From Octopus vulgaris (Eukaryota): a stretch of 64,000 nucleotides of DNA. The DNA is taken from positions 31,806,001-31,870,000 of the forward strand of contig OX597829.1 of NCBI GenBank assembly GCA_951406725.2, in the 5' to 3' direction. Below, one piece after another: positions 3,221 to 62,809 of this stretch (positions within the stretch are counted from its first letter, which is position 1; each line of letters begins with the position of its first letter). The notes under the pieces are model-generated. The model worked only from the letters and a program-made list of their open reading frames with translations. It was not told where the DNA came from and did not search any database. A program made the position numbers and the translations under genes.

Positions 3221-3233
3221 GAATTATGAAAGT

Positions 3234-3399
3234 GGGCACAGGAGTGGCTGTGTGGTAAGTAGCTTGCTAACCAACCACATGGTTCCGGGTTCAGTCCCAC
3301 TGCGTGGCATCGTAGGCAAGTGTCTTCTGCTATAGCCCCGGGCTGACCAATGCCTTGTGAGTGGATTTGGTTGACAGAAACTGAAAGAAGCCTGTCGTA

Positions 3400-3456
<57 letters not shown>

Positions 3457-3655
3457 TTGTGTGTCTCTCCCTATCATTGCTTGACAACCGATGCTGGTGT
3501 GTTTACGTCCCTGTCACTTAGCGGTTCGGCAAAAGAGACCGATAGAATAAGTACTGGGCTTACAAAGAATAAGTCCTGGGTCGATTTGCTCGACTAAAGG
3601 CGGTGCTCCAGCATGGCCGCAGTCAAATGACTGAAACAAGTAAAAGAGAAAGAGA
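3234..3655 (+). mobile_element. Full-length tRNA-derived SINE (family A) with internal microsatellite
   Basis: A-box TGGCTGTGTGGT, B-box GGTTCAGTCCC, body, central (TA)n(TG)n, 3' half ending ctgaaacaagtaaaagag; many copies in window. Confidence 0.9.
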
Positions 3656-4005
3656 AAGTCATGCTATAAATCAAAAAAAAGAAAATTTTAAATTATAATT
3701 TATTAAAAATAGAATTTACAGATTTAAACATCTAAACCAATTTACAAGTTCTTATTGATCTACAGGAGGGTTAAGGTGACTGGATGTAAACATAGATATA
3801 TCAATGAGAACAGACTGGTTTCTGGCTATTTTTGAGATTTTCTTGAATCACATCCCGACTATTTAGACATTCAGTTTGACCAGCAGTATGTCTGGCTTAA
3901 TTTGATATTTTTTACATATGCAGTGAGTTAGAACTCTTGTAGAAATTATGCTTTTACTGCCATTTATGGACCCTGCATAAGTGTAATTTCAATTATTTTC
4001 TAGAT

Positions 4006-6495: not shown

Positions 6496-6779
6496 TGACA
6501 AACCATATAGGATGCTGTATATCAGTTTGGACATGGTGTAACCTTGTTGATTCTGATGGTGGTCACAGCAATAGCATTACATATCCCAGTAGTGTTCAAG
6601 ACTAACAAAGATAGTAATGTTGCTGCTGTTTAGTGTTTAGGTCTAGTGAAGGTTGTAATGTTGCAACTATGTGCACTTTTTACATTTGTCTAAGACACCT
6701 GGGAGAGAAAATATTTTAAAAATATTGTAATTGCATTCTAAAGATATTCCAGAGTGTTGTATATGTATTCTTTTCTTTT

Positions 6780-7186
6780 ATTCTTTTACTTGTTTCAGTC
6801 ATTTGACTGCAGCCATGCTGGAGCACTGCCTTTAGTTGAGCAATTGGATCCCAAGACTTATTCTTTGTAAGCCTAGTACTTATTCTATCGGTCTCTTTTG
6901 CCGAACTGCCACATTATGGGAATGTAAACACACCAACATCACTTGTCAAGTGATGTTGGGAGGACAAACACTGACACACACACACATATATATATGTGTG
7001 TGTGTGTGTATATATATACACACACAATGGGTTTCTTTCAGTTTCTGTCTATCAAATCCACTCACAAGGCTTTGGTCAGCCCAAGGCTATAGTAGAAGAC
7101 ACTTGCCCAAGGTGCCATGCAGTGGGACTGAAACCAAAACCATGTGGTTGGTAAGCCAAGCTACTTACCACACAGCCATGCCTGTA
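6780..7186 (-). mobile_element. tRNA-derived SINE (family A), full-length
   Basis: Reverse-complement match to 3234-3655. Confidence 0.88.
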
Positions 7187-7875
7187 TCTGAGTGTTTGGA
7201 AATTTTTTTTTTTATGCAATGTTAGAGACTGTGAGGGTTGACACAGCATATTTTGTTCTATAGTTTCTTGTCTTTCTTTTTAGTTCAATACCAAGTTCTA
7301 TTTCGATTATGTGTGATGATGGAGGTTGTGACCTGTGCCTGAGGCTATTCTTGGTTCATCAAATTAGCTCTGTTGCATAAATGTGGCTGTGTTTGTTTTT
7401 ATGTTGCCTTCTGGGATGCATATATAATTTTTTTTTTAATACATAAACTGAAGTTTCTATGTTGGTGATTGTGATAGCATTTTATTTCTGCAAACTTTGA
7501 TTTTGCTTTCTTGTGGAATTAAATATACAGGACTTTTCTAATGTAATTTTACTTTGTTTTTCATTTGTGAAGGTGTTACAATGATAAATAGTAAGTGGCC
7601 AGAAGAGAGTAAAGGGATTGTTTACCATGTGGTTGTAGTGGTTAAGTATGTTGACCAAATGGTGATATTTGAGAAGGGAAAAGTTGTAGTTAGTCGAGTG
7701 AAGTATGTGAATTGTTAAGCTGAAAAGAAAGCTTAATGGTGTTGCAGTAACATCAATTCTTGTTTTATGTGTAGTTTTTGAACTTGGAAATGTAAGTTTG
7801 AAGTGTCTCCACAATGGGGGTATTAAGGTATTGTAATCAAGGAGTGTAACCTTGTAGGGCGATCCATGATGGCAC

Positions 7876-8226: not shown

Positions 8227-8239
8227 TATATATATATAT

Positions 8240-8635
8240 AGGAGTGGCTATGTGGTAATTAGCTTGCTTACCAACCACATGGTTCTGGGTTCGGTCCCAC
8301 TGTGTGGCACCTTGGGCAAGTGTCTTCTACTATAGCCTCAGGCCAACCAAAGCCTTGTGAGTGGATTTGGTAGACAGAAACTGAAAGAAGCCTGTCGTAT
8401 ATATGTATATGTATATATACATGTATGTGTGTTTGTGTGTCTCTGCTTGTCCCCCACCCCCACCACCACCACATCACTTGACAACCGATGCTGGTGTGTT
8501 TACGTCCCCCGTAACTTAGCGGTTCAGCAAAAAAGAGACCGATAGAATAAGTACAAAGTCCTGGGGTCGATTTGCTCGACTAAAAGCAGTGCTCCAGCAT
8601 GGCCACAGTCACATGACTGAAACAAGTAAAAGAGA
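8240..8635 (+). mobile_element. tRNA-derived SINE (family A), full-length
   Basis: Match to 3234-3655; sits in a (TA)n tract. Confidence 0.88.
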
Positions 8636-8821
8636 TATATACAATAGCAGCCATAATATAAGGGTCAGTAAGAACAAGTGTGTTGAAATAGATATAGAAG
8701 ATTAATATGTTGGGACTGGATATTCTACACATATTTATATATATCTAATATCTATCTTTTGTAAAAATTTCAGTAAATGGAATAAATATTTCGTAAGTTA
8801 TTAGAAAATAAACAATCTTCC

Positions 8822-11860: not shown

Positions 11861-12532
11861 AAAAAGTAATTGGATTGTGACTATTCAAGCTATGCTGCAT
11901 CCATTGTAACCTTCAAAATCTTCACAAATTTTGGATCTCAAAATTTTTAATGACTTGGCATGGCAGCTCTTTATATAATAACATTGCCAAAATAACATCC
12001 TGAAAAAAAAAATATTCCTCTTTGAGACTTGGAGATACCTTTTCTTCATTTAGTTGGTGACTTTCTACAAAGCTTAAATGTGACATTCACCAAAGTATTC
12101 TTCACATATGCAAGACAGCACTTCTGCTGCTAGACCACATTGAAAGAAATATTTGACTGCTAGTCAAAGAATTCATTCACCAACAAACCTCTGGTTCACA
12201 TAAATGTATTGTATTCCACTCTTTGTTAATCTGAGCTAATTACTTGACTTTACATCTCTGTCTAAACGCATCAATTTCTCTTCTTCTGCTGCCCCTTTAA
12301 CTCTTTTATTACCATATTTCTGCAAAAACAATTTAATCTGCATCTTCTTCATTGTTTTAACATCCACTTTTCCATGCTCACATGGGTTGGACAGAGTTTT
12401 TTTGCAGCAGATTTCCTAGTTTGATGGCCTTCCTGTTTCTGACCCACACTTGTTTCCATGCAAACTTATATTTCTCCACAGCTAGAAATGATTTTATAGG
12501 TGTCATTAGCAGATGCCTCTACAGCACTATAC

Positions 12533-12905
12533 TCTTTTACTTGTTTCAGTCATGTGACTGTGGCCATGCTGGAGAACTGCCTTTAGTTGAGCAAATCAAC
12601 CACAGGACTTATTCTTTGTAAGCTTAGCACTTATTCTATTGGTCTCTTTTGCTAAACCACTAAGTTACAGGGACGTAAACACACCAGCATCGGTTGTCAA
12701 GCGATGTTGGAGGGACAAACATATACATACACATATATATACGACAGGCTTCTTTCAGTTTCCATCTACCAAATCCACTCACAAGGCTTTGGTCGGCCCG
12801 AGGCTATAGTAGAAGACACTTGCCCAAGGTGCCATGCAATGAGACTGAACCCGAAACCATGTGGTTGGTAAGCAAGCTACTTACCACACAGCCACTCCTA
12901 CGCCT
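12533..12905 (-). mobile_element. tRNA-derived SINE (family A), full-length
   Basis: Reverse-complement match to 3234-3655. Confidence 0.88.
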
Positions 12906-13319
12906 ACACATTAACATTTCGGGTATCTTTCGTTAGGTGACTGCAAATCAAAAAAATACTCACTACATTTGTGAACAGTTGTACATTTTATATATATATA
13001 TGCACATGCATGCATATTACTCTATAATATGGCATTAGAAGCTAGTGTTAGCTTTCATACACCTTGCATTAAACATTAACTACAAAACAATTATGCAGTG
13101 ACAGAAAAGCAATATTAGCCATTGACTAATAATATTTTAGGTCTTTTTGCAAGTGCAGGAGACAACTCGGTGCAACAAATTTCACTATACTCGTAAAAGT
13201 ATTGATGAGAGAATCACTAAGTAAACGTACAATAACGTACACTAATTAGTAAAGAAAACCAGAAATGATCTGAAAAGTTACTCTCAGATGCCAGCTGGGG
13301 GGGGGGGGAACACATAGTT

Positions 13320-34480: not shown

Positions 34481-34629
34481 GTAATTTGTAAACATCTTCA
34501 GTCATGGTTAACTTTGTCCTTCTTTACCAAAAACAAGATGACATCACCTTAAATTCTTGGCAAATATACTACTAAATATATTTCTGCAACATAGTTTCAT
34601 TTAATCAGATTAAAAATTCCATACACTAC

Positions 34630-34793
34630 CGCTTGCATATACATTCGTCCAATGAGTGGCTGTTTTTTGGAACACATCTTGCCTCTCTCTATACTGCCTT
34701 GCAACTACAGCATCTTGGGGATCATCAGGTTCAGCAGCTGCTAGTAAGGCTTGAAGTGATAATAGAACTGTTCGAAGGGTCATGGCAGCAGCC
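34630..34793 (-). CDS. UBE2K: UBE2K exon, C-terminal part of UBC domain (164 nt, phase 2/1)
   Basis: gagcag|G GCT GCT GCC ATG...AGC G|gtagtg; AAAMTLRTVLLSLQALLAAAEPDDPQDAVVARQYRERQDVFQKTATHWTNVYAS; phases match both neighbouring exons. Confidence 0.96.
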
Positions 34794-34936
34794 CTGCTCA
34801 AAATAAAACAAAACATTGCTTTCAATTTCAAAACATTAAGAGAGAAATCCAGAATAAAGCTGAAAGTCAAATACATATTAATCCAATCCAATCCAAAATT
34901 AACATACATATATATAAATAAAAATGCAAAGCAAAT

Positions 34937-35657: not shown

Positions 35658-36569
35658 TCCTTTTGATACCACAACAGGCCCAAGACCTAAGATTGTCTTT
35701 GGTTTTATGATACAAACTTTCTGATCTAAAATAAAACCTTCCAACAAAATTTCATGTTATTTAGGTTCCAAACACCAGGTGAATAATGACAGTTCTTAGA
35801 GAAGGCTTTTGATAACATGTCACACACTGTAAGTTGGAGATTACTAAGGAAACCAGAAAAACTAGGGATAGCAAAACAGGTGACCAAGGAAGACTTGGAA
35901 TGAAGTAATGAAAGCTGAATCTGAAGATTCTGCATCTTACAGAGATGAAAGACTGTACTGATTGGTGATATGAGGTGCTACAGAGGATCTGTCCATCTGT
36001 GGCAAAATGTATCTTGACACAAGGGTAGTATTTAGAAGCTGCAATTATATATTTTTACTCGTTTCAATCACACAATAGCAAGTATGCTGGCGTACCAATT
36101 TGAATGGATTTTAGTCAAACAGACTGACCCCCAGCACTTACTCTGTTGGTCTCTTTTGCTGAACAGCTAAGTTATGGGGACCATAAACAAACACACACAC
36201 AGATGACCTGTTTATAGTGATCAAATGTTTGTGCCATATATTAGCTAGTTCCTCCCATCAAACTGACATTGCCAGGGTTCCACACATCAGGTATCAAAAT
36301 GATCACAGAGCAATGTGAAGTGAAGTGTTTTGCTCAAGAGTACAACACACACAGAGACTAGTTTGGAAGTTGAAACCATGATCTTGCAATTGTGAGTCTA
36401 ACAACCTCACCACTAGGCCAAAGTTTCACCCTGTTTCCATCTACAAAATTCACTTGTAAGGCATTGGGGCTTTAGGAAACATTTATTCAAGGTACCTGCA
36501 GTGGGACTGAAACAGGAACCATGTGGTTGTCAAGTAAGCATTTTGACCAGATGGCCATGTTTGCACATA

Positions 36570-38915
<2,346 letters not shown>

Positions 38916-42970: not shown

Positions 42971-44161
42971 CCTGTCATATTTGGTTATATTTTTGAAGTT
43001 TTTAACTTAACTTTTTAAGTCTATAAAACATCATGGCAAAATTGAAAAGCTTCAGGGACATGTTTCCCAAACAAAGATTCCATCAAAAGAGACCATAATC
43101 AAGAACTGTGTGTATTTTGTCCCATGAAGGAATGACTATAAAGGTGAGAGCAGCTGTCCATTAAAAGTAAAGCTAGATGCAGAGCATCATAAAACTACAA
43201 TCCGCAGGAAAACATAAATTAGACATAGTTCACCATTTGAGAAAGAAAAAGAGAACTCACCAATCTTAGAATAAAGTTAAGAGAATAGATAGGGAACACA
43301 CTGGGATGCTGGATTTCTACAATCATAAGTAGGCCTAGCATGCAGGAGGCTTTAATTTTATCAAGATGAAAAGTTCAGTTTAAAGTTCCTAATTTCCATC
43401 AATCAATCTGTCCTAAGACACAAAGGGATCTAAGGATGTCAAATATTTGTGTTTTGAAACAACTCCACAATTTCTTAACAAAATCTGATCAAAGTTATCT
43501 TACAATCTAAATTTGTCCCGAAACAATGCACAAAGATAAGCTGGGTATATGGTTACCCTGGTGCAATATCTGTGCACTTCATCATGTGCTTGCTTAACCC
43601 TCATGATATAAGTTTCTTTTATATATAAGTTTTTTTAGATATAAGTTACAATTTATGCTCCAAAAGACCAGCTTTGTAATAACAAAGCTGTTTTATATAC
43701 TAAATTCTTATTTTCAAAATAATTGAAAAAATAATGTATTTCAATAGAAATTTGGTAACAAAGCAGTTAAACCAAAGACACACACTCACACAGTGATATA
43801 CTTTAAGTTAACCAGCTGTTACTATGACAACTGTTATTGATGTCAGTCATTATGTATAGTCTTTCAGTTCCTATGTTTCCAATGAATGCTTCATTATACA
43901 CACGAGAGAGAGACCACCCTCTGGGTGATTTTCTGCTAGTTGCTAAATATTTGATCCCCAATTTGTGTAATGTTTGATATGTTACTTCTAATTTCAATTT
44001 GCATCTTCTTATTAGAGATGGTAAATTATTTTTTATATTACTGTTTTCCATATGAACTATGATAGCCCAAAAAGTAAAGGCTACAGCAAAAGAATTAACT
44101 ATTAGAAAGAGAGAGAGGCTGGGGAGAGAGAGAGAGAGAGAGAGTAAGACTGCTTCTCAGT

Positions 44162-46394: not shown

Positions 46395-46565
46395 AAAGCC
46401 AAACTGCTAAGTTATGGAGACATAAACAACCCAACACCAGTTGTCAAGCAATGGTGGTGGTGGTGGTGGGGGGACAAGCACAGACACACACACAAATATG
46501 TACATATGACGAGCTTATTTCAGTTTCCGTCTACCAAATCCACTCACAAGGATTTGGTTGGTCCG
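46395..46565 (-). mobile_element. SINE family A fragment
   Basis: gccaaactgctaagttatgg...ttcagtttccgtctaccaaatccactcacaagg. Confidence 0.75.
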
Positions 46566-46689
46566 AGATTCATATAAAAATGATTATAATCCACATTAAC
46601 CATCTAATTCCATTTATGAAAAATATGATTGAATTTGTTGAACTTTACATTATTTACATTTGACAGATATTTGTCCTCATCTTGTTTGT

Positions 46690-46734
46690 TAACACGTTTC
46701 AGCTGGATATACTCTCCAGCCTTCTTCAGGTGTC
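46690..46734 (-). ncRNA. Minimal type I hammerhead ribozyme motif (left arm; cleavage triplet deleted)
   Basis: GACAC CTGAAGA A GGCTGGA-gagtata-TCCAGCT GAAAC GTGTT; 7-bp stem II, but 3 nt missing relative to the right arm. Confidence 0.55.
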
Positions 46735-46967
46735 TTTGGGAAATTTTGAACCTGGGTTCTCATTCCTAAGGTATTTTTCGATGTTGTTGTTATTGTTATT
46801 GTTCAGGTCACTGCTTGGAATCGAACTCAGAATCTTGGGGTTAGTAGCCCGTGCTCTTAACCACTATGCCATATGTCCGTGAGCATATGGCGTAGTGGTT
46901 ATATAATAATAATAACAACATCGAAAAATACCTTAGGAATGAGAACCCAGGTTCGAAATTTCCCCAA

Positions 46968-47013
46968 GGCACCTGAAGAAGGCTGGAGAATATATCAGCT
47001 GAAATGTTGTGTT
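46968..47013 (+). ncRNA. Minimal type I hammerhead ribozyme motif (right arm)
   Basis: GGCAC CTGAAGA A GGCTGG-agaatata-TCAGCT GAAA TGTT GTGTT: stem I, CUGANGA, stem II, GAAA, loopless stem III, GUU. Confidence 0.65.
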
Positions 47014-47881
47014 AACAACAAACAAGGTGAGGACTAATATCTATCAAATGTAAATAATGTACATAATTCCTCATCTCTTAAATATAGAAATGTATTTGTT
47101 GAACTTTGTTTTATAAGATGAATCATATACTTAATACACACACACAAACACAGTGAGCGAGCAGGTGCAATTGATACATACATTCATATATATATATACA
47201 CACAAATGCATGTCTACCAAATTCATTCATAAGTCTTTGGTAGGCTGAGGCTATAGTAGAAGACATTTGTCCAAGATGAGGAAGCAAGTGAAATAAATCT
47301 ACATACATAATTATTCTGTTGACCTATGAAACAAAATCTATAATTGCTACTTCCAAAGAGAAGAACTGAAATTTGCAACTAAGTAGAGTAACTTAGTGAA
47401 TGCAGACTGAAAATCACTACATTTCTTTTGAAAGGTAACAGGCTGAAATATCAGGAGTCAGCGATTAATATAGACATGAAGACTATATCTTCAGGAATTA
47501 ATGATGATGGCAACATATCTGAGTGAGTACAAACCGATAGCACAGGATTTTCTAATGTCAACTCTTGTTGCATGATTTGAACAGTTTCTTTTTAACATAT
47601 ATTTCAAAATAAGCTGTTGCAGCATGTTAATGTGGCCTGGGATACACCATGTCTGAGAAATAAAAGATGGCCAGGGAATACTTCTAATTATTGGTCTGAT
47701 ATAGCAAAGCTGACCTGGAACCAAACAGTAACAACAAAGTGTGTGTGTGTGTGTGCATGTGTGTGTGTGCGTGTGTGTGTGTATGCATGCATGCACACAC
47801 ACATGCTGCTGTGACGCAATATGCAAAAGACAACACTTGATTTATAGCGGATACAAACTTTGTTCTTGAAATTAACAGCAA

Positions 47882-60914: not shown

Positions 60915-62451
60915 CATACTCTCAGTCAACATTTTCAGTTCCCAGGATACTGACTCTGCAGCATTCAGCTACTTCAAAGAGAGCCATACCATTTTCTTTA
61001 TTGTTCTGAGACAAAATATGAGTGGGACACTCATGTATTATAACGAAAAGAGAAGTCAATCAAAACAGAAATCATTCCTCTTTGCACTATTAATGTAACA
61101 ATCAATATTTCCAGTTAGAGTTACTTTCATTTTCTATTGTTGAACACTAAACAGATGTTCAATTAAGAGACAGATAGTAAAGTAGTTCAAAGTTAAATGA
61201 TGAAAAGTTATGGAACAAGCTATTTGATTAAGTTTACTTTGCAATTATGTAGCATCATGTTCATTCTTATTGTGGTACCTTAGACAAGTGTCTTCTGCTG
61301 TAATCTCAGACTGACCAATGCCTTCTGAATGAAATTTGGGAGACAGAAACTGTACATGTGTATGTATGTGTGTGTGTTTTCACATTGACATAAACAATAT
61401 GACTGACAGCTCAGTGAAGATATGAAAAGACCTGTGGAATAAAATGCCTTACTGAAACAAAAGGTTGTTGCCAAGAGAGGCAACTAACTATAGAATACTG
61501 CTTCAAGACTTGTCTAACTCATACCAACACGGAGAGAAAAGAAACACTATTAAACATAACTAAACATGATAGTACTTCACTGAATGCTTGATGGATGCAT
61601 GCACCGCTCCATTATAGTAATCCAATGACAGAGAGAGAGACTATTTGATATAAATAACAGCCAAATCTCCTTCAAATAACACTACCATCTTTAAAAAAGA
61701 CTGCAAGGTCATATTAAATAATATAGTCCTGATACACCCTAAAAAGACGTTTAGAATGTTTTGCTTTATTATGGTTGACCTAGAGCTAAACAAATGTGGA
61801 TATATATGTCAATGAAAATAATGAGTTATTTGTATACAGTGCTCAGGTAAACAACTACTTGTCAGAATAGAGTAAAAGAAAAAAAAAACCCAGAAAACAT
61901 AATGTACAGCCAAAAGTAAATGCAGAGTACACAAGAAAAAAAGTGAACAGTAAAAGAGACATAAAGAAGAGAAAAATGTGTAAAGCAGATCAGGATTTAT
62001 GCAGGCAGAAAGCAAGAAAATTTTGAAAGATACAATGTTCTGATATCATATATATTTCTAAGTCCTTCATTTCATTTTCTGCTTAACACTAAGGTTGGTC
62101 TCACATTAAGAATAGCAATGTAATTTCCACATATAAGTTTTATAATTATAGAACAAATGGAATTTGTTAGGTTTAATATCTTAGCATCTTTGAAAAAGTG
62201 CTCATGATTTGACTCACTCCTAACTGGTTTCTATTGTAATTTTTCAAGGTTATCTATTATGCTTTTCTTGAGCAGGTTTAATTAAGATAGGATATAACAC
62301 ACACAGACAAATAAAACACTGATATCAGCAGGGGATATTAAAGGGAAATTTTGGGTGTATTTTAGCATATAGTCTTTACTGAAAGCTGTAACTATAGTAC
62401 ATATTTAAAAAAGGAAAAGCAAACAAAAAAACTGAAAATAGAAAAACATAC

Positions 62452-62604
62452 TTTTGGAGGGTTAAATGGATATGTCTCAGGAATTTTAATTTCTAGTTGA
62501 AATTTACCACCTTCATATGGTGTTTCTGGAGGCCCAGCTATTTCACCTTTTAATTCATCATATTTATCATTTACTAATTCCACTCTGATACGACATTTTT
62601 CAAC
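62452..62604 (-). CDS. UBE2K: Ubiquitin-conjugating enzyme E2 K, first coding exon in window (probably exon 2; 153 nt, phase 0/0)
   Basis: ttgcag|GTT...CCT CCA AAA|gtatgt; encodes VEKCRIRVELVNDKYDELKGEIAGPPETPYEGGKFQLEIKIPETYPFNPPK, a typical UBC N-terminal segment closely matching UBE2K. Confidence 0.97.
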
Positions 62605-62809
62605 CTGCAAAGAATAAAACAGATATGAGTAAATACAAATAATATACATTAAAAAACACTTTATACACACACACACACACACACACACACATGAAAGAAA
62701 GTAGCACTCGGTAATGTTGTTGGAGTTGTTAGTATTTAATAACAAGTTAACTCAGCTACAAAGTTTCGTAGCTGCAGATATACATCTTCAGATAGAGAAT
62801 CAGAGTCAC

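Follow-up and report, generated by a model that had tools for sequence, protein, structure and literature searches.

What left, in the genome of Octopus vulgaris, a short insert of two inverted arms with a hammerhead core on each and tRNA-like heads at its center? The window, by which we mean the whole stretch of DNA analyzed (64,000 nucleotides of contig OX597829.1, positions 31,806,001 to 31,870,000 of the forward strand), holds such an insert at 46647-47093. A first-pass annotation had taken it for a member of a separate non-autonomous family, a SINE or retrozyme driven by RNA polymerase III (Pol III) and mobilized by Penelope machinery. We find instead that the repeated unit is the terminal repeat (pLTR) of an autonomous Penelope-like element (PLE), and we consider it probable that the insert is a head-to-head pair of pLTRs, likely the product of that element's own protein copying a single RNA from both target nicks up to a 5' end that likely lies at the head.

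Anatomy of the insert

The 447-bp insert lies between two perfect copies of a 14-bp target-site duplication (TSD), ATTTGTTGAACTTT, on the plus strand at 46633..46646, where the final base is also compatible with the arm end, and at 47094..47107. Direct reading confirmed these coordinates as first annotated. The arms pair at 46646-46690/47017-47061 (93% identity) and at 46706-46799/46903-46996 (94% identity), with a central palindrome at 46858-46875/46884-46901. They had been described as inverted arms of about 155 bp: the inversion stands, and the length fails for the left arm, which is a full pLTR unit without tail (46647..46885, minus strand, 239 nt) that stops at the upstream one of two family end points.

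Read along the minus strand, this left arm comprises a short 5' hairpin leader (46874..46885), which is the start point of family copies and the center of the palindrome 46858-46901; a complete tRNA-Arg-like head (46806..46878; A box 46861-46871, B box 46817-46828); a (TAA/CAA)n spacer (46782..46803); an ATG (46761..46763) with which, in copies linked to an ORF, the PLE reading frame begins; and a hammerhead (46691..46734, core 46723-46729) that has lost its GUU cleavage triplet to a 3-nt deletion and is predicted to be inactive. The right arm, on the plus strand, has a truncated head (46881..46901) from which about 57 nt are gone, a (TAA)n spacer (46902..46918), and a hammerhead (46968..47013; stem I 46968-46972/47009-47013, core 46973-46979, GUU 47006-47008) whose stem III palindrome is disrupted by a C-to-T change at 47005. 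It alone carries the Penelope "tail" (47062..47094, plus strand, 33 nt, the last base common to the TSD), and from ATG through hammerhead to tail (46939..47093, plus strand) it corresponds to the N-terminal codons of the PLE ORF, with one stop in the window copy. The earlier account of these parts, with tRNA-like heads placed head to head at the center (A and B boxes on the minus strand, a truncated head on the plus strand), hammerhead cores on both arms, mutations in both, and a one-sided extension at 47062-47093, is borne out at the same positions, and the window copy is a dead insertion.

A gene for a ubiquitin-conjugating enzyme appears to host the insert in one of its introns, as suggested by UQ_con matches (Pfam) on either side of the insert, at 62395-62751 and 34613-34936, both on the minus strand; we take the flanking exons to be UBE2K-like. 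Two fragments of other short repeats flank the insert, and the window has many copies of at least two such abundant repeats (3232-3657, 6772-7189, 8227-8641, 12528-12907, 46398-46567, 47211-47278, and others). A very long run of (TG)n, poly(A), and (TA)n at 36500-38900, more than 2 kb, is possibly an assembly artifact. As for the Penelope remnants once claimed for the window, what stands is one weak match, a degraded GIY-YIG-like fragment at 43071-43178 (plus strand; 45% over 38 aa to the family endonuclease, E 0.002); no DNA match to the family accompanies it.

The repeat unit and its Penelope element

Across the genome searched (2.8 Gb, about 30 large contigs), a 33-nt hammerhead-core pattern has 2,819 exact matches and a head pattern 3,032, with none for either reversed control; both counts are lower bounds for family size, because arms differ from the column majorities by a mean of 4.7% at non-CpG sites (210 arms). 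The unit of about 270 nt runs, in order, from the short hairpin leader through a 73-nt tRNA-like head, (TAA)n, the ATG, and the hammerhead to the 3' part with the tail. With its A and B boxes the head has the build of a tRNA-derived SINE head, and its best match is a genomic tRNA-Arg(TCG), scoring 64 against 29 ± 4 for shuffled sequences in a set of 30 tRNA genes of only 5 to 6 isotypes. Rfam scans, a check that the first-pass annotation had advised, detected neither a hammerhead nor a tRNA, ARAGORN detected no tRNA at the insert, and a lowered threshold on relatives returned noise.

The family hammerhead is a minimal type I ribozyme with palindromic stem III, as first suspected: a 5-bp stem I, CUGANGA, a single unpaired A, a 5-bp stem II, and GAAAC-GUU. 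No form of the cleavage region is more frequent in the family than the one that had been reconstructed by combining the two arms, which 46 arms carry, against 19 for the runner-up. The full core is kept in 54 of 205 arms, and core plus both stems in 37 of them; the only common non-CpG substitution in the core falls at the unconstrained position N7 (T in 76%, A in 21%). The stems covary, with a score of 0.88 against 0.23 when shuffled (0 of 500 shuffles; 12 rows including 10 related PLEs), a value inflated by the fact that 8 of the 10 relatives were chosen by a filter requiring pairing. In energy folding neither the monomer (z -0.5 to -1.1) nor the dimer forms the hammerhead; going by motif and stems, the family RNA would be self-cleaving. 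Three nucleotides are missing at the cleavage site (positions 47004-47009 and 46696 of the window) in about 22% of arms, compared with about 10% deleted at a nearby micro-repeat; for the cleavage-site deletion, concordance between paired arms is weak. We discarded these deletions as a cleavage footprint, being indistinguishable from slippage; they reflect slippage or reverse transcriptase crossing a cut RNA.

The entire unit, including its head, constitutes the pLTR of an autonomous Penelope/Poseidon element that encodes a reverse transcriptase (RT) and a GIY-YIG endonuclease, which vindicates the Penelope machinery invoked earlier. Looking for the arm as the terminal repeat of an autonomous ORF, we found it on both sides, in a pLTR-ORF-pLTR arrangement, at three loci (L310, L311, and L315), and the whole pLTR with its head lies immediately 5' of the ORF at four (L185, L200, L321, and L328). 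Of the 30 best endonuclease-region copies, 27 have the head after the ORF stop codon, and the remaining 3 end right at the head start. Exact tail-ORF junctions number 46 in the genome; ORF sequence lies upstream in 6 of the first 30 core matches, several of them local duplicates. Starting from the ATG that precedes the hammerhead, the reading frame crosses ribozyme and tail and reaches a conserved N-terminal motif, ahead of which no further in-frame ATG was seen; in two predicted homologues (P0003 and P0149) the frame is likewise read through ribozyme and tail.

The ORF matches the Pfam RT domain RVT_1 (E 5.8e-8), with TERT (telomerase RT) also among its profile matches (E 8e-4), and one copy (L140) holds an open frame of 569 aa; the rows for L121 and L125 were left out as out of frame. 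Its C terminus carries a GIY-CxC-YIG motif, with two Cys between GIY and YIG, that we read by eye in the translations. The GIY-YIG profile was absent from the family's own copies in Pfam scans; PF01541 was assigned to homologues P0069, P0073, and P0096, whereas in P0003 the match missed the threshold (E 0.23). Of the 7,990 candidates that we scored, 2,980 are homologues of the ORF. The extra linker finger that is a feature of Neptune/Nematis PLEs was not seen by eye in the translations, which points to Penelope/Poseidon.

Some copies show further rearrangement. At about 7.93-9.05 Mb of contig G000:C1, near-identical ORF-linked copies (L054-L058, of which L057 and L058 overlap) are inverted and duplicated, probably by segmental duplication. 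A second retrotransposon, with an R2-like C terminus and zf-RVT and R2 protein matches, lies inside the (TAA)n spacer of several pLTRs (L085 2355-3407 and L078 2211-3465, in element-strand numbering, as well as L060 and L053, upstream of the core); from its motifs it is presumably R4/Dong. The pLTR thus supplies targets for another element.

A separate short family might still replicate beside the autonomous element, with solo pLTR copies as Pol III source genes of a Penelope-mobilized SINE. The A and B boxes are intact, the sense strand of the unit is free of TTTT, 27 of 30 head matches have no ORF sequence upstream, and mobilization of pLTRs alone in trans has been inferred in Adineta in the account given by PMC3846280. 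Yet the four diagnostic variants occur at similar frequencies in ORF-containing and ORF-free loci (212 arms; the N7 A variant, for example, in 18 of 86 and 27 of 124, respectively), so that no separate short lineage is visible, and none of the four sites has a short-specific variant. The unit also ends 3' at the PLE ORF start, with fixed ends, and carries none of the poly(A) or repeat tail of a LINE-derived SINE. Furthermore, binding by anole Poseidon, as described in PMC11167929, requires RNA downstream of the RT start sites, which a solo copy would not have. We regard such a SINE as unlikely, and the separate non-autonomous SINE or retrozyme of the first-pass annotation gives way to the pLTR of an autonomous PLE. 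In many copies 40 to 400 nt of ORF start stand between two pLTRs (L172, L176, L182, L186, L188, L192, L194, L195, and L199, together with L318, L320, and L324-L327); these retain RNA downstream of the tail and could be the real non-autonomous templates.

Insertion and transcription

In position-ordered samples of 30 loci each, an inverted partner accompanies 17 of the core loci and 18 of the head loci; a few loci are shared or duplicated. Exactly one arm has the tail in 47 of 52 stand-alone pairs, neither in 5, and both in 0; 28 of these pairs were selected for likeness to the window copy, and in the position-ordered samples there is one tail per pair in 21 of 24. The ends of paired arms fall on two constant positions separated by 33 nt. 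Of 47 pairs, 29 are flanked by TSD-like matches of at least 11 nt, a length reached in 0.8% of swapped flanks, and four insertions within other repeats have empty paralogous sites, with overlaps of 4, 6, 9, and 12 nt by our own end calls; no empty orthologous site for the window copy was among the joints listed. In ordered pairs more of the head is retained on the tailed arm in 9, on the tail-less arm in 4, on both in 5, and on neither in 3; more head on either arm is what two independent primings predict.

These features weigh on the reading of the family as a non-LTR retrozyme spreading via hammerhead-cut circular RNAs, or as a MITE. Its type I hammerhead and long inverted arms would suit such an origin, but none of the first 100 exact core matches has a same-strand neighbor within 1 kb, and three head-to-head pairs are present among them; a single partial tandem (L049) occurs in 30 loci. 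Copy ends do not coincide with the GUU site. In place of a MITE's symmetric terminal inverted repeats and fixed short TSD, we found a one-sided tail and TSDs that vary from the overlaps above to the 14 bp of the window copy, in line with the earlier judgment that this is no MITE. We find either origin scarcely credible.

In 56 of 61 pairs both arms carry the same N7 variant (odds ratio 82), and we reject the idea that two RNAs are generally drawn from a mixed pool, as from a hammerhead-dimer template; overall divergence is hardly lower within pairs (7.8%) than between them (8.4%). Copying of one RNA and copying of two RNAs from a single master would both give this agreement. The agreement also suits a fold-back, in which one cDNA would self-prime at the 5' hairpin, the head being a passenger SINE or tRNA relic and transcription being by Pol II. 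Perfect small palindromes at the junction favor this, and self-priming is suggested in the account of PMC3846280. However, in 4 of 21 ordered pairs and in the window copy the tail-less arm has head sequence absent from the tailed arm, for which a fold-back would need later deletion, and the fixed second end 33 nt short is left unexplained. We judge a fold-back quite improbable.

Priming from both nicks, which we prefer, would proceed as follows. A protein dimer would nick both target strands 10 to 14 nt apart, and reverse transcription would begin at two internal sites on uncleaved RNA, both steps by analogy to anole Poseidon, which in vitro nicks and extends both strands, reverse transcribing uncleaved RNA from two internal sites that bound the tail (PMC11167929, in the part describing these reactions). 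The small 5' hairpin, or stretches of microhomology, would be the place where the two cDNAs join. If the A and B boxes fix the transcription start, priming at the first pLTR-ORF junction would copy only about 270 nt per nick and leave short by-product copies like the window insert, while priming at the second would yield ORF copies. The role of the hammerhead would lie in the mRNA, where a cut would part the sole in-frame AUG from the ORF, and not in setting the element's ends. Such two-site priming at both nicks would account for the single tail, the fixed 3' ends, the arm concordance, and the presence of head sequence on either arm.

Where the RNA starts is approached from the copy ends. Most of 30 head-match copies begin no more than about 7 nt from where the tRNA starts (the automatic end call gave no result in 6). 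In RNA reads and DNA contigs alike, loose ends accumulate where the head starts and close to the two 3' end points. Among 45 junction copies, 24 extend beyond the cleavage site and none is preceded, in the same orientation, by sequence from the 3' part of the ORF. Against a head start in RNA, only 4 of these 45 reach the head, and no RNA end pile-up is listed; the accumulation of 5' ends could instead reflect RT stalling or hairpin fold-back. In 10 hammerhead-bearing relatives (from 79 loci, 15 of them with a detected hammerhead), the 220 nt upstream show no tRNA similarity (33 to 42, against 35 to 40 shuffled), compared with 56 against 37 for two copies of the window family.

Runs of TTTT around the ribozyme number 2 to 8 in all 11 relatives checked and 0 in a natural unit of the family (L044), and no TTTT is shared along the 2.3-kb ORF sense strand (90 copies, at least 21 per position). 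Shared TTTT occurs at 0 of 12 TTT sites, yet GGGG likewise at 0 of 10; the pooled count (14 observed, 32 expected) counts one master repeatedly. Across 50 relatives, where 417 runs would be expected, there are 471, and a single relative has none. That one (L234, WLWD01002751.1, 2501-4190), which lacks TTTT in its open frame, is the closest metagenome relative (48%); a tRNA head was not seen in it by eye. We count the absence of TTTT as weak support for Pol III use.

Three RNA runs place thousands of reads on the unit, and the ORF start has about 10-fold depth. Reads split equally between strands and 80% continue into unrelated flanks, which indicates passenger transcription, uninformative on Pol III; a second read set gave a similar picture. 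Among the joints listed for these poly(A)-type runs, which are unsuited to circles, there was no end pile-up, splice joint, or circular joint. We rejected an intron removing head and hammerhead, for which no splice joint is listed, and a 38-nt intron in the tail region, which has no listed joint and would remove residues that homologues keep. As a possible sign of A-to-I editing, hairpins in one read set show an A>G/T>C excess (the DNA control bears another species label); the excess did not recur in a second set, in which all transitions are doubled.

The decayed tRNA copy at the pLTR start likely served as the element's promoter, and we infer Pol III transcription from the head. It is conceivable, if rather doubtful, that the autonomous PLE captured a tRNA-Arg promoter and is transcribed by Pol III end to end, its 2.6-kb sense strand having shed all TTTT terminators, with the short "SINE" copies as run-off and the hammerhead behind the AUG turning translation off.

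Relation to known systems

Octopus tRNA SINEs were reportedly described by Ohshima and Okada in 1994. Full-text searches of the literature brought up no account of a pLTR with a tRNA head; the family may already be recorded in Repbase, Dfam, supplementary files, the PMC13282606 Zenodo library, or Ohshima and Okada (1994), all outside this search. As available, PMC13282606 lists 30 recently active Penelope families in O. vulgaris without structure. Already published are the element layout with its inverted pairs, the tail, the variable TSD, the palindrome at the 5' end, the hammerhead, and opposite-strand hammerhead pairs (PMC8557442, PMC3846280, PMC4209133, and PMC6765202), as is the overlap of hammerhead and ORF start (PMC11167929). 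The novel component is the tRNA head in the terminal repeat of a protein-coding Penelope element. Thousands of insertions, with one tail to each inverted pair, provide a genomic read-out of two-site, two-strand priming, so far seen in vitro for one element.

That element, Poseidon_Ac (PAc), shares with the octopus family an RT with C-terminal GIY-YIG, a tail, and a pLTR hammerhead overlapping the ORF start, which in PAc lies inside the ribozyme; it also requires RNA 3' of the start sites. Its AUG is in stem II, compared with about 36 nt upstream of the core in octopus; its activity is shown, whereas that of the octopus family is inferred; and the structural description in PMC11167929 includes no tRNA head. 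Pen2a and Pen3a of Adineta vaga have direct pLTRs with an adjoining inverted pLTR and a palindrome at the pLTR 5' end (PMC3846280 and PMC8557442, in their structural parts), and similarly a 31-nt tail coding for ORF residues and TSDs of 8 to 10 bp (PMC3846280; EN+ PLE layout in PMC8557442). In contrast to the A/B-box head, a TATA/Inr-like promoter was proposed for them (PMC3846280), and Drosophila Penelope has a LINE-like internal promoter according to PMC2377424. For a class with promoters mapped in very few cases, the head gives a sharp 5' end.

Minimal hammerheads of metazoan PLEs share the short stem I, the unpaired base before stem II, and the palindromic stem III, as well as dispersed single and inverted copies, with opposite-strand pairs 100 to 700 bp apart in Schistosoma; the main text of PMC4209133, which describes them, has 0 mentions of "tRNA." Animal non-LTR retrozymes likewise have a type I hammerhead, a PLE pLTR origin, and a size of 170 to 400 nt, but as characterized in PMC7229834 and bioRxiv 10.64898/2026.07.22.740005 they are defined by tandem units and circular RNAs, neither seen in the octopus family. 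Schistosoma SM-alpha also places a Pol III promoter before a hammerhead, in a unit that is tandem, non-coding, and defined by cleavage, and the treatment of it in PMC6765202 mentions no link to a PLE ORF.

Promoters derived from small RNAs are known from non-autonomous elements, namely SINEs, SM-alpha, and TRIMp3. The last (Helenus, Ajax, and Cassandra) also carry a small-RNA-derived Pol III promoter within the terminal repeat, but they are a non-autonomous LTR class with tRNA or 5S heads, and their author argues in PMC10886601 that autonomous partners must use Pol II. In octopus, by contrast, the head belongs to the repeat of a protein-coding element, which would show a SINE-like family arising from Penelope without a separate master and, if the promoter reading is true, a protein-coding retrotransposon started like a tRNA gene.
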